Part shown: piece after piece, positions 38,166 to 64,000 of the stretch
Position numbering within the stretch: position 1 is the stretch's first letter
How the letters are laid out: every line of letters starts with the position of its first letter
Assembly: GCA_016197155.1 (NCBI GenBank)
Contig: JACPWF010000019.1
Coordinates: 1,485 to 65,484, forward strand
Direction: 5' to 3'
From: Candidatus Omnitrophota bacterium
GTDB lineage: Bacteria; Omnitrophota; Gorgyraeia; 2-02-FULL-51-18
Length of the DNA: 64,000 bases
Program-made: the position numbers and the translations under genes
The notes under the pieces: generated by a model
Database searches by the model: none
Seen by the model: only the letters and a program-made list of their open reading frames with translations
What the model was told of the DNA's origin: nothing

Positions 38166-38174
38166 CGAAATCCC

Positions 38175-38320: not shown

Positions 38321-38343
38321 TTTGGCGACGGTCAGAGAGCGGA

Positions 38344-41893: not shown

Positions 41894-41898
41894 GCCCG

Positions 41899-42483: not shown

Positions 42484-42512
42484 AGTATAGCATCGAAAGT
42501 GGGGTTTGTCAA
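42484..42512 (-). promoter_or_regulatory. Consensus sigma-70 promoter (TTGACA-17-TATACT) upstream of cvpA-dnaG-rpoD
   Basis: The minus strand reads aaTTTGACAaaccccactttcgatgcTATACTccg within the AT-rich 200-bp intergenic region. Confidence 0.5.
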
Positions 42513-42559
42513 ATTGTTAATCGATATAAATATTAAGTTTAAACAAACACGCCCCCATT

Positions 42560-44593: not shown

Positions 44594-44754
44594 CGAAAGG
44601 CCTCCATGTTTTCGGTCATGAGCGGCAGGAGCTTGTTGCGGAGCGAGCGGTCATGGACCTCATTCAAAAGATCCGTGTGGATCACCAGCGTCTCTTTTAA
44701 AAGACCCTCCAGCTCCCCAAAATAATTTTTAAAATCTTCCTTAGTAAACATCGC
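44560..44754 (-). CDS. Hypothetical small protein (about 64 aa from MFTKEDF...). It could be the frameshifted continuation of 44741..44980.
   Basis: The protein-like sequence begins at an internal Met. The upstream part of the track ORF has a non-protein-like composition. Confidence 0.2.
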   Translation of the reverse strand, partial: AMFTKEDFKNYFGELEGLLKETLVIHTDLLNEVHDRSLRNKLLPLMTENMEAFRWLKQEKEKLF

Positions 44755-44980
44755 TTCGGCCGCCCTGCGCCTCTTTTTTGATTTCGCCGATGGCGTTCGC
44801 GTGTTTGGTCTGGATGACGGCGCGCGCCTGAAAATACTCGAGGATTTTCCGGCGGTCGGCCTCTCCGAGACCGCCAAAGGAAAGAGACGAGGCCATGTCG
44901 CGGTGAAAAAGCACGGCCAGACGTTTTTCAAGTTCAATGAGCGAGTCGAGAGCGAGGATCAGTTTTTCTTTTTGAATCAT
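44741..44980 (-). CDS. Hypothetical small protein (79 aa)
   Basis: Open frame abutting the GT2 synthase gene. No recognisable domain. Confidence 0.25.
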   Translation of the reverse strand: MIQKEKLILALDSLIELEKRLAVLFHRDMASSLSFGGLGEADRRKILEYFQARAVIQTKHANAIGEIKKEAQGGRSDVY

Positions 44981-46800: not shown

Positions 46801-46808
46801 GAGCGCCG

Positions 46809-48371: not shown

Positions 48372-49279
48372 TCGATCTCCTTCAGGAGGGCCTCAGCCAA
48401 CTCCTTCGACTCCTCGGTTTTTCCCGAATAGTGATAGGCCCGCGCCAGCATGAGTTTGGCCGCGGTGTCCGACGGATTTTCGGCCAGGACCTCTTTCAAA
48501 AGGACTTCCGCCTTTTCATATTCACGGTCCATCAAATAAGTTTTGGCGATATTTCTTTTCAAAATATTCCGCGAGGCGGCGCTCCATTTTTTCCCATTCG
48601 CCAAAAGATCCCCGTAAAGCGCGCGGGCTTCCTCGGTCCTGCCGCCGTTGGCGGCCATCTCCGCCAGGAGCGCTTTTGCCTTCGAATTCCCCGGGTCTTC
48701 TTCAAGGGCCCTTCTCATCGCCTCTTCGGCGGGTCCGCTCTTTCCGGAAAAATAAAGGGCCTCGGCGCGCAGAAACTCGAGATTCGCGTCGGGCTTCACC
48801 GACAGGCCCTGTTCAAGCGTCTCGATCGCTTCGTCGTAGCGCTTCCGGCGGATCAGGACCTCGCCCAGCGAGGCGCGGATTTCCGCGTCTCCGGGATGGT
48901 CCTTCAAAAGATTTTTGAAAGCATCCTCGGCCTCCTGCAGTCGCCCCGCCCAGAGATAAACACCCGCGAGTTTTTGCCGGGCCCGCTCATTGTCCGGCTC
49001 GGCGTCCAACACTTTTTGGTACTGCGCGATCGACTCGTCGTAACGCCCCTGCCAGCTCAGGATCTCCGCAAGCGAGAGCCGGGCCTCGACGCGGGAGGGC
49101 TCGGCATCGAGCGTTTCCTCATAGAGGGGCGCGGCCTTTTCAAAATCCCCCTTCGAGGAATAGTCGCGGCCCTTCGAATAGGCGATGTCCGCCCGGTGCG
49201 AAAAACGGTAGAACGCGGTGAGGAATACCGCCAGAACCGCAAAGAGCGTGATGAATCCGGCGCGGCGCGCGCGGCTCAT
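48368..49279 (-). CDS. TPR-repeat protein
   Basis: 303 aa with an N-terminal TM anchor and at least six TPR motifs. Confidence 0.7.
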   Translation of the reverse strand: MSRARRAGFITLFAVLAVFLTAFYRFSHRADIAYSKGRDYSSKGDFEKAAPLYEETLDAEPSRVEARLSLAEILSWQGRYDESIAQYQKVLDAEPDNERARQKLAGVYLWAGRLQEAEDAFKNLLKDHPGDAEIRASLGEVLIRRKRYDEAIETLEQGLSVKPDANLEFLRAEALYFSGKSGPAEEAMRRALEEDPGNSKAKALLAEMAANGGRTEEARALYGDLLANGKKWSAASRNILKRNIAKTYLMDREYEKAEVLLKEVLAENPSDTAAKLMLARAYHYSGKTEESKELAEALLKEID

Positions 49280-50748
49280 GTCCGCCGCTCCGGGATGGGC
49301 AAAACAAAATAAAAAGTCGAGCCTTTTCCGTAAACGGATTGCACGCCGATTTTTCCCTGATGGCCCCGGATGATGCGGTCCGAAATGGCCAGCCCGAGGC
49401 CGGACCCCGCCTCCGCGCGCTCGGATCCGTCCGGGACCTGCGAAAAACTTTTGAAGAGCTTGGGGACATCCTCTTCGCGGATGCCGACGCCTTCGTCAAT
49501 CACCCCCACCTGCGCGGCCATGCGGGCGTACACCGTGCGGACGAGGATCCGCCCCCGTTTGGAAAATTTGATGGCGTTGGTCAAAAAGTTCGCCAGCACC
49601 TGCGCGATTTTGTCCTTGTCGCAGGTGACAAGCGGCAGGGCCTTGTCCAAATCCGTTTCAATTTTAAGCCCTTTTTTCCCGGCGACGAGGTCAAATCCCT
49701 TTTTGACTTCGAGGATCAGGGCGTTCAGGTCGTGGGGCGCCAGGTGAAACTGCGACTCGTGCGAGCCGACCTTCTGATAATCCAGGACCTTGTTGATGAA
49801 GCGGCCCAGACGTTCGACATTGCGCATCGCGCTTTCCAGGAAATGTTTTTGGCGGGTGTTGACGGGTCCGACCGTGCCGTCCTCGACGACCGCCACGCTC
49901 TCCTTGATCGCGGTGAGCGGCGTGCGAAGCTCATGCGACACCATGTTGATGAAGTCGTCCTTCAGGCGCTCGAGTTTCTTGCGTTCGGTGATGTCGTGCA
50001 CAAAGGCGCTGAAACTGCAGGAGGTCCCGGACCGCGTGGGCCAGGACGCGATCTCGGCGGGGAATTCACGGCCGTCGTGATGCGCGAGGACCATTTCGGT
50101 TCGTTTATCCAGAAAAAAACTTTCCCCCGTCTCTACAAATCGCGCGATGTCTTCTTTCACGGACTGCTTTTGGCTTGCCGGGACAATGAGGTCCCAAACG
50201 GGCCTGCCGAGGGCCTCCTCTTTTCCGAAACCGAAAAGGACCTCCGCCTGGCGGTTCCAGTCCGTGACGCGCCCGTTCTCGTCCATCGCGAAAAAAGCGT
50301 CCCCCGCGCTTTCGATGATGATGCGCGTGCGCTCGCGGCTCTCTTTGAGCGCCTCGTCCGATCGCTTGCGCTCGATCGCGTACCGAATGACGCGCGCGAG
50401 CATGCGCGGGTTCACGACCCCTTTCACCAGATAGTCCTGCGCGCCCTTTTTCACCGCCTCGAGCGCGAGCGCGTCGTCGTCCGAGCGCGCCACGATCACG
50501 ATGGGCAGGTGACGGGCCTTGGCATTCAGCCTGAGGAAAGTTTCGAGGCCAGAGCTGTCGGGCAGTTCGAGCTCGAGGAGCACCACCTCGCATTCCTCAC
50601 AAGCCACGAACCGCAGGGCCTCCGACAGCCGGTCCACATGAACGAGGTCAAACCGCGCGTCTTTTTTGTCCACGGCGGCCAACATGTCCGTAATCAGACC
50701 TACGTCCTGGGGATTGTTCTCGACGAGGAGAACTCGGGTCGCGTCCAT
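49276..50748 (-). CDS. Hybrid sensor: N-terminal receiver domain - PAS - HisKA - HATPase_c histidine kinase
   Basis: Start at MDATRVLLVENN (TTG upstream in the track). Motifs: receiver D, PAS, H-box SHELRTPL, and G1/G2 boxes (GSGLGLAI). Confidence 0.85.
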   Translation of the reverse strand: MDATRVLLVENNPQDVGLITDMLAAVDKKDARFDLVHVDRLSEALRFVACEECEVVLLELELPDSSGLETFLRLNAKARHLPIVIVARSDDDALALEAVKKGAQDYLVKGVVNPRMLARVIRYAIERKRSDEALKESRERTRIIIESAGDAFFAMDENGRVTDWNRQAEVLFGFGKEEALGRPVWDLIVPASQKQSVKEDIARFVETGESFFLDKRTEMVLAHHDGREFPAEIASWPTRSGTSCSFSAFVHDITERKKLERLKDDFINMVSHELRTPLTAIKESVAVVEDGTVGPVNTRQKHFLESAMRNVERLGRFINKVLDYQKVGSHESQFHLAPHDLNALILEVKKGFDLVAGKKGLKIETDLDKALPLVTCDKDKIAQVLANFLTNAIKFSKRGRILVRTVYARMAAQVGVIDEGVGIREEDVPKLFKSFSQVPDGSERAEAGSGLGLAISDRIIRGHQGKIGVQSVYGKGSTFYFVLPIPERRT

Positions 50749-50773
50749 AATATTTTTAATCAATTATAAGCAA

Positions 50774-50802
50774 TTTATAACACTTTTAACAAAAGGTGTC
50801 AA
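50774..50802 (-). promoter_or_regulatory. Candidate promoter TTGACA-17-TATAAA upstream of the kinase/EPS operon
   Basis: The minus strand reads cgcTTGACAccttttgttaaaagtgtTATAAAttg. Confidence 0.4.
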
Positions 50803-50843
50803 GCGAAAGGCAGGAACGAAGCGATTAAAGTGAGTTTGGGGAT

Positions 50844-52064
50844 TTAGATCGCCGTCCAGGGAACGGCGTAAACGTTGGAGGCCGCGGGATAAACCTTGCG
50901 GCCGGCGTAAATGATGATGCCTTTTGGCGCCTCCGGATGCGCTTTAAGAAATTCCCGCATGGGCCTGGTGTCCCTAAACGTGATATCTTCGGAAGATTTG
51001 ACCTCCACCCCCAAAACTTTGTTGTCGTGACGAACGACAAAATCCACTTCTGATTCTCCGGCTTTTTGTTTCCAATAAAAAATTTCGGGCATGGTCAGCC
51101 GCAATGACGCCCAAGACAAAATTTGCTGGTAAATAAAATTTTCAAAATACCTGCCCCTGACGGAGGGGCCCTTCAAATCATCCGCCCGGCGAATACCGGC
51201 CAGAAAACACGCTGATCCCGAATCAAACCAGAAATATTTTGATTGTTTGTAGACATTTTCACTTTTGACGGCGTATCCTTTGACGTCGTGCAAAAGATGG
51301 GTTTCCTTCAGCAAACTCATGTACCGGCTGACATTGGTTCTGGTTTCGCCGCAAATTTTTGACAGCTCCTCCTGCACGGATTCCCATCCGGCCGCCCGCG
51401 CGAGGGCTTCCATGAGACGCCTGAAATTCTGAGGATGCCGGATATTGACGAGATCCTGGATGTCTCTCTGAATATAGGTATCGACATAACTGCTGATCCG
51501 TTCGAGAGCGATTTTTTCGTTGGAAGCCAGGACAACACCGGGCAGAGAGCCTCTCCATACGACTTGAGGGAGGTCGGGGCTATGCTTCACGGCGGAATCC
51601 CTCAGTTCCCGCTCCGTCCAGATTTCATCAAGCAGTCCGCGCGCGGAGAGTCCTTGAATTTCCCTAAATCCAAAACCCGTCAAATGCAGATACTTCGCGC
51701 GACCCGCCAGGGTTTCGCGCGGCGCCCTGCGGAGCGAAACGTTCCCGGAACCGGAAAGAATGAAGTTTCTTTTACGCTCGGTTTTGTCCACCAGATATTT
51801 GACCGTGACAAGCAGATCGGGACACCGCTGAACTTCGTCGATGATCGTGGGTTTGTCTTCCCGCAACAGGCCTTTGGGGTCTTCTTTGGCCTGTTCAAGC
51901 GCGTCGGCATCATCCAAAGTGACATAGCGCCAGTCTTTCAAAAATTCCGCATGTTTGAGGAGCGTGCTTTTGCCCACCTGCCGCGGGCCCGTGAGAATGA
52001 CAACCGGATGCGACTCAAACGCATCTTTAAGTCTCGCCTCGAGCCATCTTGGAATATACTTCAT
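50844..52064 (-). CDS. AAA+ ATPase, DUF4143 / COG1373 family
   Basis: Walker A (GPRQVGKST), Walker B (IIDEVQ), and a C-terminal DUF4143-like region. Confidence 0.75.
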   Translation of the reverse strand: MKYIPRWLEARLKDAFESHPVVILTGPRQVGKSTLLKHAEFLKDWRYVTLDDADALEQAKEDPKGLLREDKPTIIDEVQRCPDLLVTVKYLVDKTERKRNFILSGSGNVSLRRAPRETLAGRAKYLHLTGFGFREIQGLSARGLLDEIWTERELRDSAVKHSPDLPQVVWRGSLPGVVLASNEKIALERISSYVDTYIQRDIQDLVNIRHPQNFRRLMEALARAAGWESVQEELSKICGETRTNVSRYMSLLKETHLLHDVKGYAVKSENVYKQSKYFWFDSGSACFLAGIRRADDLKGPSVRGRYFENFIYQQILSWASLRLTMPEIFYWKQKAGESEVDFVVRHDNKVLGVEVKSSEDITFRDTRPMREFLKAHPEAPKGIIIYAGRKVYPAASNVYAVPWTAI

Positions 52065-52183: not shown

Positions 52184-55100
52184 TTAAACCGCCTGAGCGG
52201 CCATGCGGGCGGCGAAGGCAAAGGCCCGCATTTGGGCTCCGACGGGGACCGGGCGCGGGAGGTACAAATAGAGGGCGATGATCCGAGGATCATTCGTCTG
52301 CCCCAAAATAACCAGAAGAAGTTGGGGCAGGTTATTAACGGGAAATCCGGCCGCCCTGGCCCATTCCACGAAAACGGGATTGGAGGCGGCCATGTCCGAA
52401 GCGGCGAAACGCGATTCGGTCAAGGCGGCGCGCAGGATAAAGTTGAGATTGGGAAGGCCGGGTGATTTGAGATTCACGTAAAAATAACGCTCGCCGGCCC
52501 GGGGCGCGAAGGGCCGATTCACGTCGGTGATTTTGACGGGACTCATTCCCCGAGGCGCTTGGTCGAGAATCGCCTCTGCCGCGCCAAGGCCGGTCGTCAT
52601 TTTTTTAATGGCCTCTACTCTTGCCGAATCACCGCGGAGCACAAATCGGGCGAGCGGGTCTCTCCTGGATTCAAAAACGATCGTGTAAGCCAGCATCGCC
52701 GTCATGTAGGGCGAGCTCTCGCGGGTGTAAAAATCGTCGACGTTCAGCTCGGCCGCTCCGGCCATTTTACTTAAATCTTCGTGCGCGGCGGTGAAGCGAT
52801 CGATCCGCATGAGCTCAGCGCCGAGGGCCTCTTTCAAATCGGCTTGAGAAATCTGGATCCCGGATGGGATTTGAGCGGTGGCGGTTGACGAGGCCTGATG
52901 TCTGGCCTGATACAATAAAAACGGATAATCTTTGCGCTCAATTCTGACGGCGGCCCCTCCTGTCCCGAGAACAAAAAGCGAGCCGTCTTCACTCAGCCTG
53001 ATCTCGAGCACTCTGCCGTCGAGCGCAATCAGGCCGGTTTTTCGTTGGGCATCGTAAACGAGAACGGTGAATTGGAGGAGCGATTGATCGTTTATTTGAT
53101 CAATAATTTTCTGAGAAACCGACGTAGCGAACTTGGGGTCTGACCCCGCCAAGATCCGTCGTTCTTTCCGCGCGCTGTCGGTGACCGCCAGCCTCGCGGC
53201 GCGGACTGCAGAGGACGATTTTTTCGGGCCAAAAACCCACAGGTCGACATAATTGTAGGATTGGGGGCCATTATCGAGGCCTGTAATAATCGAGCTCACG
53301 CGTGTTCGATAGCCCTCTTCGGAGTGCGCTCCTCTAACCTCATCCGCCACTTTCCTTATTTCCGCTCGGATCATTCGCCCCGCCCATTCTGGAAACAGCC
53401 CGCCATGCTCGAGGATAAAGCGGACATGCGCCAAAGTGCCGGGGGACTTTTTGCCATTGACAGCATGCGGCGCCAACTTGAATCTCAAATACCTGTCGTC
53501 AGGACTCGTTACCTCCGGACGTTTTTCCAGAAGTTCAGCTTGAATGCTCTGCCCTTCCGCCAGCCGCGCGCCGCGTGGCGCTTCCGTCGTCAAAACAAGG
53601 TTCGAGCCGTCTCCGTAAAAATGGTTTTCCGCAAACAGCCTGAGGCCAAACGTCCATAGATAGCGTGCGGATGGAATTTTGACGATCCTGTATTCCTCGT
53701 CGGTTCGCGTGTCTCTGAGAACCAATCGCGAATCTGCCCCGGCGGCATCAAATGCCTCTTCTATCGCCTTCAGCTTCAAAGCCAAAAGTTCCTGTCTTTT
53801 CGAAAGCAGTCCACTCAAAATATCGCGCGCGATGGGATTCTGACCGGCCCGTTCGATCCAGTCCCGGAGAGTGTCAGGCACACTCTCCCATCCGGCCGCC
53901 TCACTCGCAAGAGACCGCAAAAAGCGCGCAGTTTGTTGATAAACTGGGGCCTGCGCCTTGGCCATCGTCGAGGGGGACTGCGCGAAAAGCGAATAGTTTC
54001 TGTCAGCCTCAGAAACAGCGTTGTTCAAAAGCTCGACGGCCTCGTCTCTCCCCATCAAAATTCTTTGTGTTTCGGGACCATCCCCTGCCAGCCTCGCGGC
54101 CGCCGGCCGTGCGCGGCGTTCATCCGGCTGGATTTGTGCCCGTGGTTTATTGACTCCTCCAATATTGTATTTCCTCGCCACATTCAGCAAAGGTTCCGCC
54201 AGTGGATTCTTAAAATTTTCCAGATTTTTAAAAATATCCCGCAGAAGGTCTTCATTCGCGAAATTTCCAGTGTCAAAAAAAGCGTTGTATGCCTTCAAAA
54301 AATCATCTGTCAAGCGAAGCCGTCTTTTTGACCCCGCGGGAATCTTATCCAGCATGCCCAAGGCCAAGGCGGCATAATCGTTTGTGTCTTCTCCTTCCCA
54401 AGCCCCTGCGTGAGGTGTTTGACTTTTCCGATTTGCCTGTTGTTTAACGAAAGAATCGAAATAAATGGGCAATCCACGATTAAAGCTGTCCCTGGTTTGC
54501 AAATCACCGAACCAATGGTAAATCCGAACGACAACACCCCGTATCCTTGTCGCCATCCGCGCCCCCCTCGACTGCGCTCGGGACAAGCCTCGACGCGTCT
54601 CGTTGCGCTCGACTTGCTCGGGACTGGTTGGCCCTTCGCCGCGGAAGCCCTGAGCAAGGCCCGAAGGGCCGCGTCGAAGGGCCAGCCTCGCCCCAGCGCT
54701 CTCTTCCGGGCGCGCTATGAACCGAATGAAGCCCCTCTCGCAATCACTCTCAGAATAGATCCCCAAGCTCCCGGAAACCATCACAACGTCTACTAGGGCT
54801 CCATTGATTCTTCGTTTGAGCCGCCTCAGTATCTGTCCGCGGTTAACAATCTTTCTGCCCGTGAAAGTTCCAACGGTGGTCACTTCAACTATATCACCGG
54901 CCTGCCACCGGTCAAACGGCAGGGGATTTTGCGGTAAACCGACCGGAGAAATTCCTCCTTTTGAAGCATTGCTTCGAGCGGAAAGCCTCGCCCCCTGCGA
55001 AGAGTCAGAGACGGGTGACGAAATAAAATAAACAATCAGTCCCAACACCAATCCCGACGCCAGGCCAAGGAGAATATTCTCGAAGATCAAACCAAACAAC

Positions 55101-58100
55101 GCCCCAACCGCCATGCCGGAGGCTATGAATCCCGCAAGCCACATCCGGTTTGAATCCGCCAGCCGCGCGGCGGAAGAGCCGCTTGTAGTTTCGGTAAAAA
55201 TTTGAATCGCCCGGGTTTCCATCTCTACCGCGTCATTAAATGCGCGTCGGAGCGCTTCCCCGGGAAAGCCGGCAAAACCGACGCCGACGTTGATCGTGCC
55301 GTGATTGGCCAACAAAAGTTCGTTGACGCGAACGATCTTTTTGCCGACTTCCGCCGCCAGAGGGTCTCCGGGAAAGGTGTAATGGATGCTCACAATCGGC
55401 TCCTCGCCCTCACGAAGTCGAAAAGTGTGCCCAACGTTTCCGCTTGAGGCAAAACCCGTCGCCACGGGCGAATGGACATGAACCACCGCCTGCGCATCGC
55501 GCCGCGCGCGATAAATCGCCAGATGAAAAGCGGTTTCAGAGCTGGGCTTCAGATTTTCCCCAAGCCCCTTCACGCGGTGTCCCGCTTCAAGATCCACACC
55601 CACATATTCTTCCGGCCGCATGTCTTCAAAGGCTTTTCCGCTGGCTTTGATCAGGATAATATCTCTTTCGCCATTCGAAGTTTGGAGACGGACTCGGACG
55701 CTGGTGTTGCCTCCCGGTCCCACGACCAGTCTTTTCTGGGCAATTTGCCTGCCAACCGCTGTCAAAACCTCCCGCGCGCTTGCAATCGCATGGTCACTGG
55801 CCAAATTTTCGCCCAAATCCATCACTTCGGCTTTTGTTTCAACCGGTTTTCCTTCCAGCTCCGCCTGACGGTCCAACTCAATGGGCGATCCCAAGAGATC
55901 ATTCGCCTCCTCCTCACTCAGCCCCGTAGGCCTTCCGAGAATTTCCGACACCATCCTCGTCCGAATCGAATCCACTTCAACCATCGCGCGGAAAAGAGCT
56001 TCCCTTGAATTGGTGCCGACAGCGATGAGGCCGTGACGCGTGGTCATCACAACGGTATGCCCCGTCATGGCCTCGGCGATTTTCGGGTCCTCATCAACCA
56101 GCAAAAGCGGCCCTCTTTCTTTCGGCAAGGCGATATGGTCCGGCGTCACCAGAGGCAGAAGCGTTTCCGGAGCATTCCATTCATTCTCGTCAAACCGTTT
56201 TGCCAAAAGCGCCTGCGCGGCGGCGGGCCTTGACTGCACGATGAATTGGACTTTTTTATTTTTTTCATAAATAGCCCGGTGAATTTGCTCAATTTCTTCC
56301 GTCGCCTCCCCCGCAAAAATAACACTCTCACCCACGCGCATGCTGACCACCGCGTAATCGAGCCCCTCTTCTTGACAGCGCGCCAGTAAAGGTTGAAGCT
56401 CTCCCCGTAGCCACTGCGCTTCGCTAGTCAGCGCCGTCCGGGCGGCAGATTCGATCAGCCTGTTGACTTCTCTCAGAAACCGGCCGGGATATTCAGGATT
56501 TTCGAAACTCCGCATTTCCCTTTGTTCGATGGCCGCAATACCCTTTTGCTCCGCGCGGCCGAGAGTGTCCGTATAACCACTGACGATCAAGATACGAGAC
56601 TTATCAATATGTGCCTCCTGAAGAGAAGTTAAGATCTCCAAGAGAACCGTCGGATTGCTTCCGCTATACACGGCGATCACCAGATCCGGAGGGTTTCCAT
56701 CCGATTTCAGAAACGCTGGCACAGTGTCGAACGAATCGACATGATATTGGCCTGACAAGGCCGCCATCTCTTTCTCCGTAGATCGTGCGTCACCGATTAC
56801 CACAACGTGGGGGAGTTGCGCCGCCAAACCCGCTAGCCGCGCCCCCGGTATTTCCGGCGTGAAAATTTCCCGGCGGCCTCTTTGAGCCCAGACATTTCCC
56901 TTCAGTCCCGACATGGCCTCAACCTTCGGAGAAGGCAGTCCAAACCGGTCCGCGGTAAGTTCGCCTATCAGGACGGCGATGGCAAAACCGTACTCGATTG
57001 CCGCTTGAAAATAGTCCGAGGCCCCCGGAGTCCGGTTCGTAAAAAAGTAGGTGTTGTACCCGCCCGCCCACGGCGCCAGATAATCGATCTCGATCATATC
57101 CTTTTCAGAATCGAGCCCAACCTCCTTCCCCGCCTCCAAAAACGCCCTGCGGAAAAGTTTTGTTGTCGTCCGGTGATGCGGATGGCTGTCCTCTTCGTGC
57201 GGAAGGATGTAAATAAATGGAGTGCCGCGCGCTTTGGCGGTTAAAATTGCATACCGATTGGCTTTGAAATACGCCCGCGCGATCCCGAGCGCCGTCGGAT
57301 ATTCCTCATCCCACAACCACTCCGGAGGACCGCCGACCCGGTGCGCGTAGGCGGGGAGCAACAAATCAAGCCACTTGACCTCGAGCGGCTTCGGCATTCC
57401 CTCTGAAAGAATCGAGGAAGCCTTTTCCACTTCCAGGCGCCGGATAACGCGCCGCGCGACCTGTTCGAGGCCGACGGACATTTCCTTTCCCGCAGTCCAA
57501 TGGGAAACTTCGAGTTTTAGATTCTCAACTTCGCCAAACGTCGTGTACCGCGTCTCAAAATCTCTTCGAGCATCGCCCGGGAGTTTCTCCAAATCAAGCT
57601 CCGAAATAACCCGCCGATACACCCCGTGTTCTCTTTGAATTCTCTCCCAAAACGCGCGCGCCTCTTCCTCGTTCAAACTTTTTAGGTACCCGATCGCAGC
57701 CGCCACCTGATCATCGCTCAAACGAGCCACCCCGCTGTCTCCCGCGCCGGCCACCCAGTTTTGAACCGAAATGCCCGCCCTGAGCGAATTAAGAATAAGG
57801 CCCGCCAGCGCGATCACGTCATCGTCCGGATGCGGAGATAAAATGACGAGCGGGTACGCACGACTTATTTTTCCCAAAATATTTTTTGCCTGTTCCGGAG
57901 TAACCGGGGTCGCGTTTCCTTCGGCATCATAATGCATCACCGTGACGGGATTGGCATGCCCGGCCGAATCCTCCAGAAGACCTCTGATCTTGCCCATCGA
58001 GGCCCCGTATTTTGCCAGCCACTTCAGCACCGCTTCATAACCCGTTCTAAAAAGCTGCGTCAAATGAGCGCGAAGCGCCGAAAGGGCCTTTTCCAAATCC

Positions 58101-61100
58101 TCCTGTCCCTTTCCGAAAGGAATGTACGCATTGACGGGGTTGGCGATCCGCGGAGGAACCGATTCATAAAAAATCACCTCGACCGGACGGCGGGCCCGGT
58201 TGACGTATTCTTGAACGGCCCGCCTCACAAAGCGTTCCTCGGGTTTGTTAAAACCGTCGTTCGGCACAATGAGAATCCGGGGGTCAAATCCGTTTAAATT
58301 ATTTGAAAGATCTTCCAAAGAAAAATGACGGACGGTATTTTTGTAGGCCAGCTTTTCAAATTCTCCGATCACCTCGCCAAAAAATGGCGCGGAATCGCCC
58401 TCTTCCAGCTCCACGACCGCAATCCCGGCATCTCTCGGAAGCGCGCCGTACTTTACTCCTTTGGCTTGCTCGTCCTGTGGAAGATTTGACAAAATCACGC
58501 CGCCCGCTTCCGGAAGCGGGAGAAACTGCCTCGCACCGGCCAGCCGGGCGGCAGGGGCAGGCATGGAGGGTTTTCCCGGCTTTTCGAACTCCCGGTAGAC
58601 CTCAACCATTAAAGTTAAAGGGGTCAAATCTTTCTTTGACTGCATGTTCCCCGCCAACCGCGCGGCGAGAGCGACAGGATTATTTCCAAAAATAAAAGGA
58701 TGTGTTATACTCTCCGCAATGCTCACGAAAAATTTCTGGACGGAGAAAAGGCTCGATGCGGTGGGCAAGACCTCTCTGACACTGTTCCAAGCGTTTTTGA
58801 TCGCCGCGGCGCTGGGAGGAATATTCGGTAAAATCGAGTCCGGTTGGCATAAGGCCCTGTTTGTCGCGGCAACCGTGATATTTTTGGCTTTGGGCATCAC
58901 TCTTTCGGATAACAAGCCAAAGGAGAAATAAAATGTTCGGACTAATAACTGCCATCGTGATCGGGCTGGTTCTATCCATCTGGATAGCCATTGAGCGGTA
59001 CCAGCAGAAACACCGGCATTCGCATTAATTCTTCCGCAATTCCACCCTTCCCTTCCCGCCTGATTTCCGTCTCCTGACAACTGTGTTAAAGGGGTCAAAT
59101 CTTTCTTTGACTGCATGTTCCCCGCCAATCGGGCGGCGCTGGGATTTTCTCGCCCTTCGCTGACTACTGTCTTCTGTCCACTGACTCCTGTCTCTTCTCC
59201 CGCCAGCCGCCCGCCACTAGGGCGTTGGCGCCCGTCCGCCGGATCTGTAGTGGCGGAGGCAGGCGCGGCGTTCGGGCTTATAGAGAAATAACGGTAGCGG
59301 TCTGCGCTCGAAGGATTTCCGGTTTGAATGAAACTGCAATTGTAATCTTTATCCGTAAAAAGCCTCCTAATCTTATCCAGCCGTTTATTGATCGCTTGAA
59401 GGTCCTCGGTATTTGTATTTGGTGGATAGGAAATACACACGCGCCATTCGCCGTCTGCCTCGGTTAAGACTGCGTCGTGATATTCCTGCGGTACTCCTCT
59501 GGCAAACTCAAGCATCTTGGAGGTATCCCCGGCAGTAAACCCCGCCAGGCGGGCCTGCCCGTCCGCCAGGCGCGCCCCCTGCCCTGAGCCTGCCGAAGGG
59601 GTGGCGCGGCGGGTAGCAAGAATACGGAGAATGCTTTCTTTCTCCGCCTCGTAATTTTTACCATGTTTGCCGGAAAGGGCTACCGCCTCCGAAAGCCCGG
59701 CGTCAAGATTCTCCTCGTTTTGGGCAAACCAGTTGACGCTTCGCACGGGCCCAAATGCTGGGGCGTCCGGACGCCCTCGCGTTTGAAGATAGGTCCGGAT
59801 CTTATGCATGATCTGATTGTTATCTCTGATAGTATCCGTTTGCGCCGGCCCATCCACCGTGATGACTGACTCCGCAATGAAGTCCTCGTCCACTCCGCTT
59901 CGTATTAGCAAAGCGATCAGGAGGAGTTTGAACTCTTTTCTCCTTTCACCAAATAAAATAGGGACTCTCTCTTGTTCTGCCTGGGCGGGATCCCTTTCGT
60001 TTTTTTGTCTTCCTCTGATTACCGCCCACCGGTTTCCGCCCACTACCCTTCCCCCCGCCAGGCGAGCGGCGGAAATGTCACTATGGGAGCGCAGTGGGTT
60101 TGGATAAGAGACCAGCGCTGACGGGAGAAGTTCATCGTCACTTTTTTCACCGGAAATTTTAAAGTCGGGTATTGTCTGCCTTGTCTCCAGATCAAAAGCG
60201 CTGAGCGAGCCGTTCCAATCCCTAATCACAACAAGCCGGGAGTCCTGAGAGATTTTGTAGGAGTAGACCGTTTTGGCTTCCAGGCCTGCTATTTTTTCTC
60301 CCGTGCTGAGATCAAAAACGTTGAGCGATTCGCCGGGCCAGCCGTGAATCACGATGAATTTGGAGTCCGGGGAAATCCGGAAGGAGTGGACGTCGGGGAT
60401 CGGGTTTCCTATTTTCTGTCCCGTTTTGAGATTAAAGATATCCAGCGAGTAATCGGCCGTGTACCAAACCACAACGAACCGGGAGTCCGGGGAAATGTCG
60501 AAAGATTCGACATTTTTAGAAGTTCTCAGAACGGGCGCTTCCTCTCCCGTGTTGAGATTGAAAGCGGCTAATGAGCCGTCGTTGTACAAAATCACAACGA
60601 ACTGACTGTCCCGAGAGAAAACGCGGGTAATTTCGTCGGCGCGGGCATTCACCACGAGCGCCATGGATCCGGAACTGCCGCTTATCGAAAAGGCCGTCCG
60701 CGGCGGGATCGAGATCGAATCTCCTTTGCGCAGAAAGATGCTCGGATACCCGTCCGTTTTCAGGTAGACACCGCCCTGCCCTTCCCCCACAAAAATTTGA
60801 GTTTCGTCCGGACGCGCCTCAAAGGATTGTTCGGTCGCGCCGTCCTCATAAAAGTAGCGGCGGAATTCAAGGTCGCCCTCCAGGATTTGCCGGAAAAGAG
60901 GTTCTTTTTTATCGGCAACGCGAACGATGCCCAAATCTTCGCGCGTGGTCCTGCCGTCCCGCTCCGAACGGACCTTGGCGGCATTATTTTTTCTGCGAAC
61001 ATAGGGCAGGCTGGTCATAAAAATAAGGTGCAGATCCCCGTCGCCGGTCGAGGTGATCGAGTGCATCGCCCCCGCCGGAATCATGAAAAAATCTCCGGCC

Positions 61101-64000
61101 TCAACTTCGATGGATCTTCTCCCGATGTGAACGACGCCCTTGCCCTCGCGGATATAATAAAATTCGGGATGCTTTCTTTGCCCGACATGGTGTTTGTGCT
61201 TGGGGAGGCGGCTTTCGCCGGTCAGGGAGGCGGTGTTCATCAAAACGCCGGGGCCTTTCTGCATGCGTCCCAATCGAATGCGCACCGAAGGATTCATGGG
61301 GGCGCGCTTAACGGCCGTCCCGAAACTCACGATTCGCCCGATCTTGCTCACCGTGGGATCTGTCAAAACAGTCGAAATCGCCCGCTCAAACCGCTCCTGC
61401 AAACTGACACCGGCCGTTTCTTTCAAATCCAGAAAGTTCCCGGCGATCGCCTTCGCCAAAGCGTAAGGGTGATAGCCTCCAGTGGCGCCTTCGACCACGA
61501 CTTGAAACGGGGAGTCCCTGCCAGGCCCTCGAGGGTTTACTTTCACAGTCAAGCGGCGCCCTTTAAAATCCGCCTCGACCGACTCTATTCCCGCTTTTGT
61601 TAATTCAGCGTCCGTGTACGCATTGTCACTCAATCGCGCGGCGGATTCACTCGAAGGCTTGAAAGGCTCGATCACGATCCTGCCGTGGACATGATCGACC
61701 GTTAAAGTAAATCGCTGATCAAAAGATCCGGCGGGCAACCGCTCTGTAATCATACGATCCAAATGGTTAGTTATGTTCGTTGTTTGTTTACCATCTCTAA
61801 GCGTCGGTAAATAAATGCTGTCGATGAACACGTCATTTCCTTTGTCTGAATAAAAGACCTGGACAAAGCCTGTGGGCGACACTGATTCCCAATGGGACAG
61901 GATGGACATAGCCTCCCTCACTAAATTACTCTCCCGAACCACCATCGGGTCGGCGGTGCGAGGCCCATGCTGTTCAGCTAAAGGGGTCAAATCTTTCTTT
62001 GACTGCATTTTCCCCGCCAACCGCGCGGCACTGGGATTTTCTCGCCCTTCGCTGACTACTGTCTTCTGTCTACTGACTTCTGTCTCTTCCCCTGCCAACC
62101 GCGCCGCTTTATACGTTCGTAGTTTTTCTGCTATCAACACCGGCCGCATGCCGTCCTTTAATTCTAAATCCCGAAATTCACGCACCAACATTAGTGAGCG
62201 ACGGTCATTTGGACGGAACATCGTTTTTGGAGATTGATACCCGGAGAATCTCCTTTCGTGAAAGAAAATATTGTACGCTTCAAAACGTTCGATTTCCTGG
62301 CTGGAAAAAGGCTGTCCGTCTTTACGTGTAACGGATAAACGAATAGTCCATGTCTCGGACGTCTTACAAATACCAATGGTCATCAGGTAGGGCCCGTGTT
62401 TTATTGACAACTCGTCTCTAAAATTACTCCGAGGGGGCCGCTCGTCACGAGCTTTCTTCACAGCGCCGACGATGAAGCCGGTAATTTGTTCCCGTTTATT
62501 TTCAAATATAAACCTGAGAAAACTGTCAACGAAAACTCCAAAACTCCGGTAGTTCAATAAATAGTAGATATAGTTAACAAAACTAAACATGGGAGAAAAG
62601 CCGATACTTGTCCCTAATTGTAAAATTTTATAGGGATAGCTAAAAAGTAAACCACCCAACACAAACAGCCATGGAAGAAATATTCCGTATCTAGAAAACT
62701 TCCATAGCCCATAGGTTACGGGTTTCCAATCGCTCTCTTTTGCAGGCATTTTGTTTTCCAGACTCGCCAGCCGCGCGGCAGATGCAGGCGAGGCGTGCCT
62801 TCTCGCCTCTTTCAAAAGTCTGTTGATTTCTCGGCCTTGCCGCGTTTGACCCCAACGTCTTTCTATGTTTCCTTCCTCAATGAAAGCTCTATGAGGATTC
62901 CCAGGAGACAAGCGAAAGAAATGCCTCGGGTCTATACGACCGGCCGCTTCATCCGCGACCACAAGAACGGCGTTCTGCGCCAGATGCATCCAGGAAGCCG
63001 TGGCGCTTGAATTAGGCGGCATCGCCCAAGAACGCCGGAGCGCTTCGGCTTTATGCGGACCGGCGACCATGAACAAATTGACCGAGTCTGGATTATTCGT
63101 GCGAAGCATAATGTCGCCGGTGCCCTGGGTGAAAGCGTACCTTGGAGTGACATCGTAATTGTCTAACGCATATTGAAAAGCCTCTTGAAAATGTTCGAGC
63201 GATGCAAACTGGTATTTTGTTTCCGGATAATGCCCGGCCAATTTGTCGAAAGTAATCTCTTCCAGCATCCCGGCCAAAATCTCGATCAAGTCCAAAAGAT
63301 GCGCGATGCCGCTGTCTCCCATAAAACGCAGGAAAAACGGATGAAAGGCTGGGCCGAAATGACCACGATTTTGCACTTGAGTGGCTTCCACCACTTGAGT
63401 CAAATGATCCGGCCTCAAAACTCTTAGAGACTGAGGAACTCTTTCCAGGGAATCGGGAATACGCAATCCGGGAAAGTGCTTCGCGGGGTCGCCTCTCCTT
63501 AGGTCTGGTGAAGGTAGGAGGAAAGGATCATTAAACGCATCATGTCCGGTTGTTCCAACGCCGTGAAGTTGAAGCAAAATCCTTTCTGCAGCTTCCATAA
63601 ATATAGCCATAAGCCTGACATAATTAACACTACTATCGACCCATGGAGATACAAAAACAGGCGGCGATAAAAACTGTCCTTTGATATGCTCAATCGGGAA
63701 TTTTCTTCCCAATAAATTGACCAACATCATGTAAAGCTGTTCTTCGCGGTAACTGGACAAAGCGTACACTTGCGGATCAGTGACCATCTTTTCACCGTCC
63801 ATAGGCGGCCAGAAATAATCATCCAACGTGGTCCATCGCTTGGCTTTGTCAAAAGCCTTTAAAGTAAATTGACCTGGAAACGCCTGTCCAATCAGGTTCC
63901 AAAGTCCCAAGGCTTTTCGCAGGCTTTCGGTGGTTCCACCGGTGGCCAGACCAAAATTGAACTGCTCCTCGGCCGCATGAACGAGAGCCAAAACAAGGTG
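52184..64000 (-). CDS. Giant modular ORF (>3935 aa, N-terminus beyond the window). It consists of heterogeneous enzyme-like and membrane modules joined by linkers carrying a recurrent (A/G)ARLA(G) motif.
   Basis: 11.8 kb with no stop codon in one frame, and no long ORF on the opposite strand. The minus frame carries recognisable domains: a cupin (about 61000-61200), a 4-bladed beta-propeller/WD-like repeat (about 60150-60650), an LmbE/PIG-L deacetylase (SPHPDDD, about 57800), tandem class II aldolase/adducin domains (GGNTSVR...HVHSP, about 55200-56300), and TM segments. Confidence 0.75.
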   Translation of the reverse strand, partial: HLVLALVHAAEEQFNFGLATGGTTESLRKALGLWNLIGQAFPGQFTLKAFDKAKRWTTLDDYFWPPMDGEKMVTDPQVYALSSYREEQLYMMLVNLLGRKFPIEHIKGQFLSPPVFVSPWVDSSVNYVRLMAIFMEAAERILLQLHGVGTTGHDAFNDPFLLPSPDLRRGDPAKHFPGLRIPDSLERVPQSLRVLRPDHLTQVVEATQVQNRGHFGPAFHPFFLRFMGDSGIAHLLDLIEILAGMLEEITFDKLAGHYPETKYQFASLEHFQEAFQYALDNYDVTPRYAFTQGTGDIMLRTNNPDSVNLFMVAGPHKAEALRRSWAMPPNSSATASWMHLAQNAVLVVADEAAGRIDPRHFFRLSPGNPHRAFIEEGNIERRWGQTRQGREINRLLKEARRHASPASAARLASLENKMPAKESDWKPVTYGLWKFSRYGIFLPWLFVLGGLLFSYPYKILQLGTSIGFSPMFSFVNYIYYLLNYRSFGVFVDSFLRFIFENKREQITGFIVGAVKKARDERPPRSNFRDELSIKHGPYLMTIGICKTSETWTIRLSVTRKDGQPFSSQEIERFEAYNIFFHERRFSGYQSPKTMFRPNDRRSLMLVREFRDLELKDGMRPVLIAEKLRTYKAARLAGEETEVSRQKTVVSEGRENPSAARLAGKMQSKKDLTPLAEQHGPRTADPMVVRESNLVREAMSILSHWESVSPTGFVQVFYSDKGNDVFIDSIYLPTLRDGKQTTNITNHLDRMITERLPAGSFDQRFTLTVDHVHGRIVIEPFKPSSESAARLSDNAYTDAELTKAGIESVEADFKGRRLTVKVNPRGPGRDSPFQVVVEGATGGYHPYALAKAIAGNFLDLKETAGVSLQERFERAISTVLTDPTVSKIGRIVSFGTAVKRAPMNPSVRIRLGRMQKGPGVLMNTASLTGESRLPKHKHHVGQRKHPEFYYIREGKGVVHIGRRSIEVEAGDFFMIPAGAMHSITSTGDGDLHLIFMTSLPYVRRKNNAAKVRSERDGRTTREDLGIVRVADKKEPLFRQILEGDLEFRRYFYEDGATEQSFEARPDETQIFVGEGQGGVYLKTDGYPSIFLRKGDSISIPPRTAFSISGSSGSMALVVNARADEITRVFSRDSQFVVILYNDGSLAAFNLNTGEEAPVLRTSKNVESFDISPDSRFVVVWYTADYSLDIFNLKTGQKIGNPIPDVHSFRISPDSKFIVIHGWPGESLNVFDLSTGEKIAGLEAKTVYSYKISQDSRLVVIRDWNGSLSAFDLETRQTIPDFKISGEKSDDELLPSALVSYPNPLRSHSDISAARLAGGRVVGGNRWAVIRGRQKNERDPAQAEQERVPILFGERRKEFKLLLIALLIRSGVDEDFIAESVITVDGPAQTDTIRDNNQIMHKIRTYLQTRGRPDAPAFGPVRSVNWFAQNEENLDAGLSEAVALSGKHGKNYEAEKESILRILATRRATPSAGSGQGARLADGQARLAGFTAGDTSKMLEFARGVPQEYHDAVLTEADGEWRVCISYPPNTNTEDLQAINKRLDKIRRLFTDKDYNCSFIQTGNPSSADRYRYFSISPNAAPASATTDPADGRQRPSGGRLAGEETGVSGQKTVVSEGRENPSAARLAGNMQSKKDLTPLTQLSGDGNQAGREGWNCGRINANAGVSAGTAQWLSRWIEPARSRWQLLVRTFYFSFGLLSERVMPKAKNITVAATNRALCQPDSILPNIPPSAAAIKNAWNSVREVLPTASSLFSVQKFFVSIAESITHPFIFGNNPVALAARLAGNMQSKKDLTPLTLMVEVYREFEKPGKPSMPAPAARLAGARQFLPLPEAGGVILSNLPQDEQAKGVKYGALPRDAGIAVVELEEGDSAPFFGEVIGEFEKLAYKNTVRHFSLEDLSNNLNGFDPRILIVPNDGFNKPEERFVRRAVQEYVNRARRPVEVIFYESVPPRIANPVNAYIPFGKGQEDLEKALSALRAHLTQLFRTGYEAVLKWLAKYGASMGKIRGLLEDSAGHANPVTVMHYDAEGNATPVTPEQAKNILGKISRAYPLVILSPHPDDDVIALAGLILNSLRAGISVQNWVAGAGDSGVARLSDDQVAAAIGYLKSLNEEEARAFWERIQREHGVYRRVISELDLEKLPGDARRDFETRYTTFGEVENLKLEVSHWTAGKEMSVGLEQVARRVIRRLEVEKASSILSEGMPKPLEVKWLDLLLPAYAHRVGGPPEWLWDEEYPTALGIARAYFKANRYAILTAKARGTPFIYILPHEEDSHPHHRTTTKLFRRAFLEAGKEVGLDSEKDMIEIDYLAPWAGGYNTYFFTNRTPGASDYFQAAIEYGFAIAVLIGELTADRFGLPSPKVEAMSGLKGNVWAQRGRREIFTPEIPGARLAGLAAQLPHVVVIGDARSTEKEMAALSGQYHVDSFDTVPAFLKSDGNPPDLVIAVYSGSNPTVLLEILTSLQEAHIDKSRILIVSGYTDTLGRAEQKGIAAIEQREMRSFENPEYPGRFLREVNRLIESAARTALTSEAQWLRGELQPLLARCQEEGLDYAVVSMRVGESVIFAGEATEEIEQIHRAIYEKNKKVQFIVQSRPAAAQALLAKRFDENEWNAPETLLPLVTPDHIALPKERGPLLLVDEDPKIAEAMTGHTVVMTTRHGLIAVGTNSREALFRAMVEVDSIRTRMVSEILGRPTGLSEEEANDLLGSPIELDRQAELEGKPVETKAEVMDLGENLASDHAIASAREVLTAVGRQIAQKRLVVGPGGNTSVRVRLQTSNGERDIILIKASGKAFEDMRPEEYVGVDLEAGHRVKGLGENLKPSSETAFHLAIYRARRDAQAVVHVHSPVATGFASSGNVGHTFRLREGEEPIVSIHYTFPGDPLAAEVGKKIVRVNELLLANHGTINVGVGFAGFPGEALRRAFNDAVEMETRAIQIFTETTSGSSAARLADSNRMWLAGFIASGMAVGALFGLIFENILLGLASGLVLGLIVYFISSPVSDSSQGARLSARSNASKGGISPVGLPQNPLPFDRWQAGDIVEVTTVGTFTGRKIVNRGQILRRLKRRINGALVDVVMVSGSLGIYSESDCERGFIRFIARPEESAGARLALRRGPSGLAQGFRGEGPTSPEQVERNETRRGLSRAQSRGARMATRIRGVVVRIYHWFGDLQTRDSFNRGLPIYFDSFVKQQANRKSQTPHAGAWEGEDTNDYAALALGMLDKIPAGSKRRLRLTDDFLKAYNAFFDTGNFANEDLLRDIFKNLENFKNPLAEPLLNVARKYNIGGVNKPRAQIQPDERRARPAAARLAGDGPETQRILMGRDEAVELLNNAVSEADRNYSLFAQSPSTMAKAQAPVYQQTARFLRSLASEAAGWESVPDTLRDWIERAGQNPIARDILSGLLSKRQELLALKLKAIEEAFDAAGADSRLVLRDTRTDEEYRIVKIPSARYLWTFGLRLFAENHFYGDGSNLVLTTEAPRGARLAEGQSIQAELLEKRPEVTSPDDRYLRFKLAPHAVNGKKSPGTLAHVRFILEHGGLFPEWAGRMIRAEIRKVADEVRGAHSEEGYRTRVSSIITGLDNGPQSYNYVDLWVFGPKKSSSAVRAARLAVTDSARKERRILAGSDPKFATSVSQKIIDQINDQSLLQFTVLVYDAQRKTGLIALDGRVLEIRLSEDGSLFVLGTGGAAVRIERKDYPFLLYQARHQASSTATAQIPSGIQISQADLKEALGAELMRIDRFTAAHEDLSKMAGAAELNVDDFYTRESSPYMTAMLAYTIVFESRRDPLARFVLRGDSARVEAIKKMTTGLGAAEAILDQAPRGMSPVKITDVNRPFAPRAGERYFYVNLKSPGLPNLNFILRAALTESRFAASDMAASNPVFVEWARAAGFPVNNLPQLLLVILGQTNDPRIIALYLYLPRPVPVGAQMRAFAFAARMAAQAV
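58612..58667. repeat. Dispersed repeat R1 (short form, 56 nt) lying in-frame within the giant ORF
   Basis: ttaaaGGGGTCAAATCTTTCTTTGACTGCATGTTCCCCGCCAACCGCGCGGCG. It contains the hairpin GGGGTCAAA..TTTGAC..CCCC and encodes AARLAGNMQSKKDLTPL on the minus frame. Confidence 0.7.
58719..58931 (+). CDS. Small membrane protein (70 aa, 2 TM), encoded antisense inside the giant ORF
   Basis: MLTKNFWTEKRLDAVGKTSLTLFQAFLIAAALGGIFGKIESGWHKALFVAATVIFLALGITLSDNKPKEK. TATACT lies 7 nt upstream of the ATG, suggesting a possibly leaderless transcript. Confidence 0.4.
   Translation: MLTKNFWTEKRLDAVGKTSLTLFQAFLIAAALGGIFGKIESGWHKALFVAATVIFLALGITLSDNKPKEK
58933..59028 (+). CDS. Small hydrophobic peptide (31 aa, single TM, type-I-toxin-like architecture), encoded antisense inside the giant ORF
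   Basis: MFGLITAIVIGLVLSIWIAIERYQQKHRHSH, preceded by a perfect SD AAAGGAGAAA with 6-nt spacing, 2 nt after the stop of the upstream small gene. Confidence 0.5.
   Translation: MFGLITAIVIGLVLSIWIAIERYQQKHRHSH
59086..59216. repeat. Dispersed repeat R2 (long form, about 131 nt) lying in-frame within the giant ORF
   Basis: Same 5' part as R1, plus the CTGACT-rich 3' part. It is almost identical to R3. Confidence 0.7.
61978..62108. repeat. Dispersed repeat R3 (long form, about 131 nt) lying in-frame within the giant ORF
   Basis: Near-identical to R2 over about 130 nt. Confidence 0.7.

Follow-up and report, generated by a model that had tools for sequence, protein, structure and literature searches.

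A recurrent ARLA peptide marks the module borders of a long multi-enzyme open reading frame in Omnitrophota

What kind of gene keeps one reading frame open for 11.8 kb, strings unrelated enzyme domains along it and sets the same short peptide between them? This question is raised by contig JACPWF010000019.1 (assembly GCA_016197155.1) of a Candidatus Omnitrophota bacterium, of which we analyzed a stretch of 64,000 nucleotides (nt), referred to here as the window. On the minus strand, a frame scan and a protein match identified the C-terminal 3,938 codons and TAA of a large gene (52184-64000): positions 52187-64000 hold 3,938 sense codons and zero stops, followed by TAA at 52184-52186, while the remaining two minus-strand frames contain 156 and 162 stops over the same span. 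Along its whole length (100% identity, 100% query coverage) the translation agrees with the C-terminal part of MBI3252348.1, a protein of 5,823 amino acids (aa), here called P0001, which was deposited as 'class II aldolase/adducin family protein' from a Candidatus Omnitrophica/Omnitrophota metagenome-assembled genome (MAG) on a 72 kb contig. The window part is about the final two-thirds of the gene; the N-terminal 1,885 codons lie beyond the window, and the corresponding residues were taken from the protein record only. A prior reading made from the letters of the window alone (the sequence-only reading) had proposed a single continuous open reading frame (ORF) of unrelated modules, and this description stands, with no in-frame stop that would break the ORF into ordinary genes and with an identical protein on deposit. 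Comparable architectures are found in at least eight independent assemblies, and the P0001 gene is a genuine, chromosomally encoded gene of Omnitrophota.

P0001 consists of about 20 modules of 60-570 residues joined without stops, about 10 of which are orphans. Those recognized are a histidine-kinase-type ATPase, HEAT repeats, a NagB-like deaminase, a cupin, a propeller, a PIG-L deacetylase, a double class II aldolase and two membrane hairpins. The linkers between modules are rich in Ser, Pro, Gly, Ala and Arg and end in the consensus peptide [S/G]-[A/G]-A-R-L-A-[G]. In the window part there are 15 copies of the tetrapeptide ARLA where composition predicts 0.31, which bears out the enrichment noticed by the sequence-only reading, and full P0001 has 19 where 0.49 would be expected. 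Counting the variants ARLS, GRLA, SRLA, ARLP and ARMA as well, P0001 has 28 sites in linker-like contexts; the variants in the window part are ARLS (three), GRLA (one) and ARMA (two). All 18 motif positions listed earlier are real, with their numbering offset by 3 residues. A search of the DNA for the consensus GCCGCGCGGCTGGCGGGG, allowing as many as three mismatches, gave 12 matches where 0.37 were expected, all of them within the ORF, on its coding strand and in frame. The motif might also have proved common and unrelated to module boundaries; in the remaining 52 kb of the window, however, all six frames together contain only 4 ARLA, and the sole one in a real gene sits in the C-terminal domain of MurD.

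The sites, all on the minus strand and numbered here by residue of the window part, are distributed along its whole length. SAARLAS at residue 409 (62765-62776) lies 9 residues past the end of the NagB-like module and is followed by KAARLAG at 633 (62093-62104), SAARLAG at 659 (62015-62026) and the variant SAARLSD at 788 (61628-61639). SAARLAG recurs at 1312 (60056-60067), 22 residues past the propeller; GARLAD at 1476 (59564-59575) and QARLAG at 1483 (59543-59554) are the first and second members of a tandem pair; and the variant GGRLAG at 1597 (59201-59212) precedes another SAARLAG at 1623 (59123-59134). LAARLAG at 1780 (58652-58663) is within the third copy of a 54-nt repeat (58614-58667), with PAARLAG at 1818 (58538-58549) beyond it, and an ARLS at 2092 (57716-57727), inside the PIG-L domain, is probably a chance match. 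The series continues with PGARLAG at 2387 (56831-56842), SAARLAD at 2945 (55157-55168), 14 residues past the second aldolase, the variant QGARLSA at 3004 (54980-54991), AGARLAL at 3104 (54680-54691), the variant RGARMAT at 3147 (54551-54562), AAARLAG at 3302 (54086-54097), RGARLAE at 3478 (53558-53569) and RAARLAV at 3602 (53186-53197). A last variant, FAARMAA (52199-52210), stands four residues before the stop, so that the C-terminus reads FAARMAAQAV-stop.

The earlier suggestion that the motif marks module borders withstood comparison with the domain map of P0001. None of the 28 sites falls within a domain envelope, although envelopes cover 30% of the protein (P about 5e-5), and several sites lie 5-22 residues from domain ends: the ATPase domain is followed by one at a distance of 5 residues, the NagB-like module has one 6 residues ahead of it and another 9 residues behind it, and the propeller and the second aldolase are followed by sites at 22 and 14 residues, respectively. 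Over the eleven positions leading up to the motif, Ser, Pro, Gly, Ala and Arg are over-represented and Leu, Val, Tyr and Trp under-represented, as in flexible linkers. Domain boundaries without a motif also exist, in that a receiver-like segment and the two aldolases form one module and the cupin and propeller form another; the motif therefore delimits protein-sized units and not folds.

Whether this similarity resides in the peptide or in the DNA was assessed from codon usage. Among copies detected at the DNA level, which are not fully independent of one another, the core codons differ from the consensus by 14 synonymous changes and 1 non-synonymous change, the synonymous share expected by chance being 39% (binomial P = 1.7e-5). 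Moreover, nine G-A-R-L/M-A sites are present in P0003, a protein from another MAG whose shared module is 47% identical, and its GARLA codons are mostly GGC GCC CGG CTC GCC, whereas the window mostly uses GCG CGG CTG GCG. P0116, a third, independent sequence, carries AARLAG, GGRLA and GSRLA directly after its N-terminal module. For the linkers the picture is mixed: a 124-nt linker cassette is present in two copies at 93% identity (minus strand; copy 1 at 61979-62102, encoding xxRLAG-EETxVSxQKTVVSEGRENPSA-ARLAG-xMQSKKDLTPL, and copy 2 at 59087-59210), a 54-nt linker repeat is present in three copies, and third codon positions favor a single consensus (GCG 72% versus 42% background, GGG 70% versus 26%). 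The claim of the sequence-only reading that conservation is at the peptide level and not that of a DNA repeat is thus upheld for the core by the 14:1 ratio and the P0003 codons and is incomplete for some linkers, the duplicated ones; likewise, the varied Arg and Leu codons that it cited are real, but the third positions nonetheless lean to one consensus. The constraint on the four-residue core acts on the peptide, and certain linkers arose by recent duplication of DNA. A DNA motif as the explanation of the core was ruled out on this codon evidence and on that of a second motif class, RSExR, in the relative P0017 (see below).

Duplication within P0001 extends to whole linker cassettes and is not confined to the motif; besides the 124-nt pair, it links residues ~560-590 with 3455-3485 and ~1403-1450 with 4990-5020. 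The duplicated linker peptides are GEETxVSxQKTVVSEGRENPSAARLAGxMQSKKDLTPL, AAPASATTxPADGRxRxSGGRLA and RRGPSGLAQGFRGEGPTSPEQVERNETRRG; if the sites were cut, the first of these cassettes would free a 26-residue peptide twice.

The sequence-only reading had thought it worth looking in relatives for the motif and for modules encoded separately, and both are there: the GARLA sites of P0003 and AARLAG of P0116 have been described above, and P0016 (540 aa), a stand-alone homologue of the NagB-like module, terminates where the giants bear the motif. By all-against-all BLAST, the NagB-like module is the sole module common to all relatives found, while for each of the HATPase, HEAT and aldolase modules a match was obtained in one relative; HEAT modules also recur in P0005 and P0017. 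Eight of eight genome loci holding the shared NagB-like module belong to Omnitrophota MAGs. Module order varies among relatives, the NagB-like module lying at residue 632, 863, 1803, 2866 or 3216, and in P0003 an HD domain (2692-2860) is flanked by motif sites at 2655 and 2884.

Outside this lineage, the equivalent junctions are taken by other short motifs. A[AS]SLG is found in P0006, P0008 and P0009 (8-10 copies), KPASSDLG with variants in P0004 (8 copies), PASAI[ND] in P0002 (6 copies) and (A)RSExR in P0017 (7,248 aa; 25 copies) and at the loci L005 (14 copies) and L010 (6 copies). Directly before the NagB-like module stands SRLA-RNILP, ARMA-QNILP, RSEIR-SNILP, SSLG-...-ILP or [SSDL]G..IL, depending on lineage, and 0-17 residues past its conserved end (W..T.EGRRI..LL) stands ARLA, SSDL, RSEIR, A/S SLG or ASSPG. 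In P0017 the first Arg of RSExR is encoded by CGC, CGT or AGG, the second by CGN or AGR and Ser by TCN or AGC, with the fourth position free; since both Arg and both Ser codon families are used around a free position, RSExR is not a mere DNA repeat. At each locus, only multi-module ORFs bear the motif, and none of the ordinary flanking genes has it.

Two side observations concern these relatives. The gene adjoining P0003 (L001 92-4453, plus strand; 1,453 aa) is also multi-module, with a GHMP-kinase-like GAGGGGF motif, two GARLA sites and the ending IGAAA; because this neighbor carries GARLA sites as well, one genome has several punctuated genes. In addition, many of the C-termini of P0002, P0004-P0009, P0014, P0015, P0019 and P0021 share an amphipathic tail ending in Ala-Ala or x-Ala (for example AFWSAA, AILRAA, ALAAA, ALQAA, FIYAA and LISA), and P0001 ends in ARMAAQAV (52187-52216). 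This shared tail might be a sorting, degradation or recognition signal.

How, then, might the motif act? Because it is selected, stands at unit ends in flexible linkers, is limited to multi-module ORFs and is replaced between lineages with its positions kept, we infer that it behaves like a site read by a co-evolving, lineage-specific partner. The simplest such partner would be an endopeptidase, and we regard the chances as about even that the motif is a proteolytic processing site, in which case the gene would be a bacterial polyprotein. Such an enzyme would cut the precursor at the linkers, during or after translation, into separate enzymes and membrane anchors, so that a single ORF would supply its products in equal amounts, in the manner of viral polyproteins and MARTX toxins. 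A possible scissile bond is that between Leu and a small residue (Leu-Ala or Leu-Gly), which would fit ARLA, SSLG, SSDLG and ASAI[ND] and would not fit RSExR; since RSExR departs from this hydrophobic-then-small pattern, specificities would have to differ between lineages.

A candidate for the enzyme is offered by some of the relatives. Six of those with complete N-termini, P0003 (ARLA class), P0006 and P0008 (ASSLG), P0017 (RSExR), P0011 and P0013, carry a conserved module of ~480 residues right after a signal-peptide-like start; the module had no Pfam or PDB sequence match. Its alignment has an invariant His, preceded at a distance of two residues by a nearly invariant Asp and followed 28 residues on by an invariant Glu and, later, by GGFH. 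The same His-Glu spacing is known from His85/Glu113 of Bcr135 and His3902/Glu3930 of RRSP (PMC6254334). This TIKI/TraB-fold-like module is plausibly a hydrolase and is a candidate for the processing enzyme, but it occurs in relatives only and is a lead, not evidence for P0001. No protease was recognized in the flanks of the relatives, and Peptidase_C80, the inositol-hexakisphosphate-activated family, had no Pfam match in P0001 and no PDB sequence match in the window part. The wider proposition, that Omnitrophota make true cellular polyproteins in which enzymes of central carbohydrate and amino-sugar metabolism, membrane anchors and regulators are made as a single giant precursor and cut by a co-evolving protease at a genome-specific site of 5-6 residues, in some lineages perhaps by their own N-terminal TIKI-fold module, is one we put forward tentatively and hold to be somewhat less than probable. 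Signal-peptidase AXA, lipobox, sortase/exosortase, twin-arginine translocation (Tat) and 2A-skipping motifs were also considered, and none appears to fit all sites.

Several observations weigh against processing. The case for cleavage in this organism is read from sequence, and no peptidase domain was found in P0001 or its modules (Pfam, PDB sequence) or in the scanned window genes. P0001, the window and several motif-bearing relatives (e.g. P0002 and P0004) lack the TIKI-like module, and the TIKI fold also includes esterases and a haem-binding protein. ARLAG and RSExR would demand quite different protease specificities; tandem or close sites (ARLAGARLA, ARLADGQARLA and two sites 26 residues apart) are equally readable as binding avidity; and the third-position bias, together with the recent linker duplicates, means that part of the similarity is shared ancestry. 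Finally, some long relatives (L004, at least 6,329 aa; P0005; P0007) have no recurrent motif, so that the feature is common but not universal among long relatives.

The two readings offered at the outset, a processing or recognition site and a multi-enzyme scaffold, remain the two leading ones. In the second, the chain would stay uncleaved as a membrane-anchored scaffold, and the motif would be a docking site or hinge for its own HEAT repeats or propeller, for a chaperone or for an assembly factor, giving a compact metabolon. HEAT repeats and propellers, both classical peptide-binding folds, are present in P0001, and HEAT recurs in P0005 and P0017; the two membrane hairpins would hold all modules on one membrane side, tandem motif copies suit avidity and a protease was not found. 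A 2026 preprint likewise interprets such proteins as membrane-anchored enzyme arrays (10.64898/2026.06.07.730766). We nevertheless consider a scaffold rather unlikely, as the motif lies exactly at module ends and not anywhere in the linkers, a variant four residues from the C-terminus would be useless for a hinge, and binding of the motif is itself a proposal. The exchange of motifs between lineages weakens this alternative only slightly, as it would need a co-evolving reader whether that reader is a binder or a protease.

That the motif might have no function at the protein level, the linkers being paralogous DNA cassettes that spread with or mediate module shuffling and are kept alike by concerted evolution, strikes us as improbable. 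Such a recombination or duplication scar would account for the 124-nt cassettes at 93% identity, the threefold 54-nt repeat, the further repeated linker peptides in the N-terminal third of P0001, the biased third positions (GCG 72% versus 42%, GGG 70% versus 26%) and the module order that differs among relatives. It does not account for a core with 14:1 synonymous to non-synonymous changes, for the same peptide in other codons in P0003, for RSExR with both Arg and both Ser codon families and a free fourth position, or for a motif that always keeps the same frame and strand; the linkers may serve recombination, yet the peptide constraint would be left unexplained. Probably the linkers serve module shuffling as well. 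The source being a MAG, we also considered an artefact, in which chimeric assembly, overlooked frameshifts or stops, or a variant genetic code would make several ordinary genes appear as one, and find it scarcely credible: there is no stop in 11.8 kb in which the other frames are full of them, the genes nearby are ordinary and terminate normally, the window has a gene for RF2, ORFs of this kind recur in no fewer than eight independent assemblies, and a chimera would not carry one in-frame motif throughout. Stop-codon reassignment was ruled out, with no stop of any kind in frame and RF2 present in the window, as was an RNA explanation (ribozyme or structured element), with no Rfam family in the ORF.

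The gene is not new in kind. Omnitrophota are already known for giant and long multi-enzyme ORFs (West-Roberts 2023, bioRxiv 10.1101/2023.11.21.568195; Seymour 2023, PMC10066038), and class 1 of the 2026 preprint comprises 'multi-enzyme metabolic clusters' with sugar-metabolism domains (10.64898/2026.06.07.730766). Two statements of the sequence-only reading have to be given up on this account: that the arrangement matches no described system, as long multi-enzyme Omnitrophota proteins are published and all eight shared-module loci are from this phylum, and that reported giants are usually adhesin-like and not enzyme strings, which is out of date. P0001 shares with these proteins the phylum, one ORF tiled by divergent enzyme domains of which none dominates, a flavor of sugar metabolism, transmembrane helices, many unannotated stretches and a housekeeping genomic context. 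However, the describing papers use size classes of >30,000 aa or >=10,000 aa (bioRxiv 10.1101/2023.11.21.568195; 10.64898/2026.06.07.730766), and at 5,823 aa P0001 is far under these, a small relative and not 'giant' by those definitions. It also differs from the described Omnitrophota proteins in having no N-terminal signal peptide and in its recurrent, lineage-specific motif, and from Archaeovorins in that Pfam scans of P0001 revealed no C39/S8 peptidase, SecA-like, glycosyl transferase/hydrolase, methyltransferase, NUDIX or dockerin domain. The papers on Omnitrophota giants suspect proteolytic processing and ask whether the protein is one chain or is cut (10.1101/2023.11.21.568195; 10.64898/2026.06.07.730766), and West-Roberts 2023 noted that information on cleavage points was lacking, a gap that also prevented structure prediction by parts (bioRxiv 10.1101/2023.11.21.568195). 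A punctuation motif, a linker, a polyprotein or ARLA in this sense is absent from the Omnitrophota giant-gene papers, and no paper joining Omnitrophota and polyprotein was found within the literature that could be searched. Within that literature, the punctuation motif and its lineage variants appear to be new.

Better-known systems resemble P0001 in part. MARTX and large clostridial toxins, at 3.5-5.2 thousand residues, likewise hold unrelated modules in one chain. The residue after the Leu in their cleavage sites is small. Their protease domains cleave on the C-terminal side of Leu, in the unstructured stretches that separate the effectors (PMC2900308, PMC2780291). The Leu at P1 in MARTX resembles the pattern ARL/A, SSL/G and SDL/G, which is known here as a sequence pattern in Ser/Pro/Gly-rich linkers, and the MARTX effector RRSP has a TIKI-fold module, as do relatives of P0001. 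In contrast, neither Peptidase_C80 nor RTX glycine-rich repeats were detected in P0001, there are no type I secretion genes nearby, its modules are metabolic enzymes and not toxins, and the RSExR class is without Leu. Viral polyproteins (picorna-, flavi-, alpha- and coronaviruses) draw many mature products from one ORF, with a site of 4-6 residues repeated at every junction and a small P1' residue, and their site differs by lineage and co-evolves with the protease. Unlike them, P0001 is encoded on a cellular chromosome (with cell-wall genes, rpoD, dnaG and secA), no protease is recognized in its ORF, and some of its sites are in tandem or 5-26 residues apart. Repeated short recognition sequences also flank cassettes in pro-hormones and in multi-core precursors of ribosomally synthesized and post-translationally modified peptides (RiPPs), such as cyanobactin PatE; the cassettes there are peptides of 6-30 residues, whereas those of P0001 are folded enzymes of 100-570 residues. 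Rickettsia palindromic elements are DNA repeats of ~100-150 nt that lie in frame within coding sequence. They resemble the 124-nt linker cassette, yet only two or three P0001 linkers are such repeats, and unlike these elements the core is kept with different codons across genomes and the P0001 repeats occur nowhere else in the window.

Giant Omnitrophota ORFs are a recognized puzzle, and the motif turns the question of whether they are cut into a direct experiment, since it provides a concrete, testable map of where to split giants for structure prediction, which neo-termini to expect and which co-evolving enzyme to look for. Cleavage, if confirmed, would mean that a cellular organism expresses its core metabolism by way of polyproteins, a matter relevant to how ultra-small, host-dependent bacteria save on regulation; if cellular polyproteins were made throughout, the motifs would be the long-missing cleavage map for all Omnitrophota giant proteins. 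Were cleavage excluded, the motif would still be a conserved recognition element in a poorly understood protein class.

Searching family by family after splitting at the motif sites, a check that the sequence-only reading had proposed, succeeded in part: several families were confirmed, but of 19 motif-delimited modules scanned against Pfam at E 0.05, 11 were without any match and 1 had a sub-threshold match only. The window part opens, in minus-strand order, with the final ~400 of the ~490 residues of a divergent glucosamine-6-phosphate deaminase (NagB)-like module (62801-64000), which more exactly describes what had been called a carbohydrate-enzyme-like N-terminal part. A profile of six homologues matches PDB NagB chains (E 9e-11) over only ~85 C-terminal positions; Pfam gave no match, and an AlphaFold model from six sequences reached a predicted local distance difference test (pLDDT) score of 46 and was not used for fold search. 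A hydrophobic stretch at aa 430-500 (62501-62713), ~25 residues after a motif, is probably membrane-spanning, a tentative assignment that falls under the strict Kyte-Doolittle cut-off of 1.6. The cupin and PIG-L domains and the two class II aldolases named by the sequence-only reading were each confirmed by Pfam, as Cupin_2 (aa 931-994; 61019-61210; E 4e-15), a PIG-L/LmbE-type de-N-acetylase (aa 2053-2286; 57143-57844; E 1.4e-8), a first class II aldolase/adducin domain with approximate borders (Aldolase_II; ~aa 2520-2705; 55886-56443), homologous to residues 1685-2152 of P0002, and a second, fuculose-phosphate-aldolase-like one (aa 2746-2931; 55208-55765; PDB 6btd_A, E 1e-12). Its propeller is backed by four repeats of ~41 aa (aa 1123-1290; 60131-60634), which also show as a DNA repeat family with ~123-nt spacing, while Pfam propeller matches stayed sub-threshold.

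Membrane attachment would be provided by two two-helix hairpins found by hydropathy scan only, at P0001 residues 712-767 and 4840-4879. The latter (aa 2955-2994 of the window part; 55019-55138) forms a 58-residue mini-module with the motif on either side. The C-terminal region (52187-54979) comprises five orphan modules of 99-336 aa each without family or homologue in Pfam and homologue searches, and its final ~1,000 residues had no homologue at E 0.001 among 8,000 candidates. A PDB sequence search of the window part returned the aldolase, the cupin and a weak propeller match and nothing else, and Pfam scans of the modules revealed no carrier-protein, ketosynthase, condensation or adenylation domains of polyketide, non-ribosomal peptide or fatty-acid synthases. 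The family names of the deacetylase, deaminase, aldolase and cupin suggest a role in amino-sugar and sugar-phosphate metabolism. Upstream of the window, P0001 has the histidine-kinase-type ATPase (HATPase_c) and the HEAT-repeat module; the latter is headed, three residues past an ARLA site, by NRGRRFFGIKLLLAALLVTATTRPAGAFQ (P0001 988-1020), which resembles a signal peptide with a twin-arginine-like n-region and could be functional only if a new N-terminus arose there.

The rest of the window is ordinary bacterial chromosome, and the genes neighboring the ORF end in normal stops; no mobile-element or secretion-system context was seen. Genes at 34060-52064 were named from reading their translations, and Pfam scans covered the other window genes. 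The window encodes a class II aminoacyl-tRNA synthetase, Lnt, SecA, RF2, UvrC, MurJ, HolA, a BamD-like protein, RibD and RibBA, and further RpoD, DnaG, a cellulose-synthase-like glycosyltransferase, TPR proteins, a histidine kinase and an AAA ATPase. A cell-wall and division cluster on the minus strand (17455-32881) comprises FtsA, Ddl, MurB, MurC, MurG, MurD, MurF, MurE, FtsI and RsmH. Among crude ORF picks, MurD and MurG have N-terminal extensions of 150-200 residues and there is no separate MraY or FtsW; a 404-codon open stretch (26003-27214) overlaps the MurD extension. The RNA genes, also on the minus strand, are a bacterial class A RNase P RNA (35453-35876; 177 bits) and, just downstream of rpoD, tRNA-Val(CAC) and tRNA-Met(CAT) (38092-38165 and 38175-38248). 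The RF2 gene (6831-7904, minus strand; PCRF and RF-1 domains) starts late in its ORF, with the classical prfB +1 frameshift heptamer CTTTGAC close upstream on the same strand (7860-7866); this points to programmed frameshifting of the usual kind and to UGA as a standard stop.

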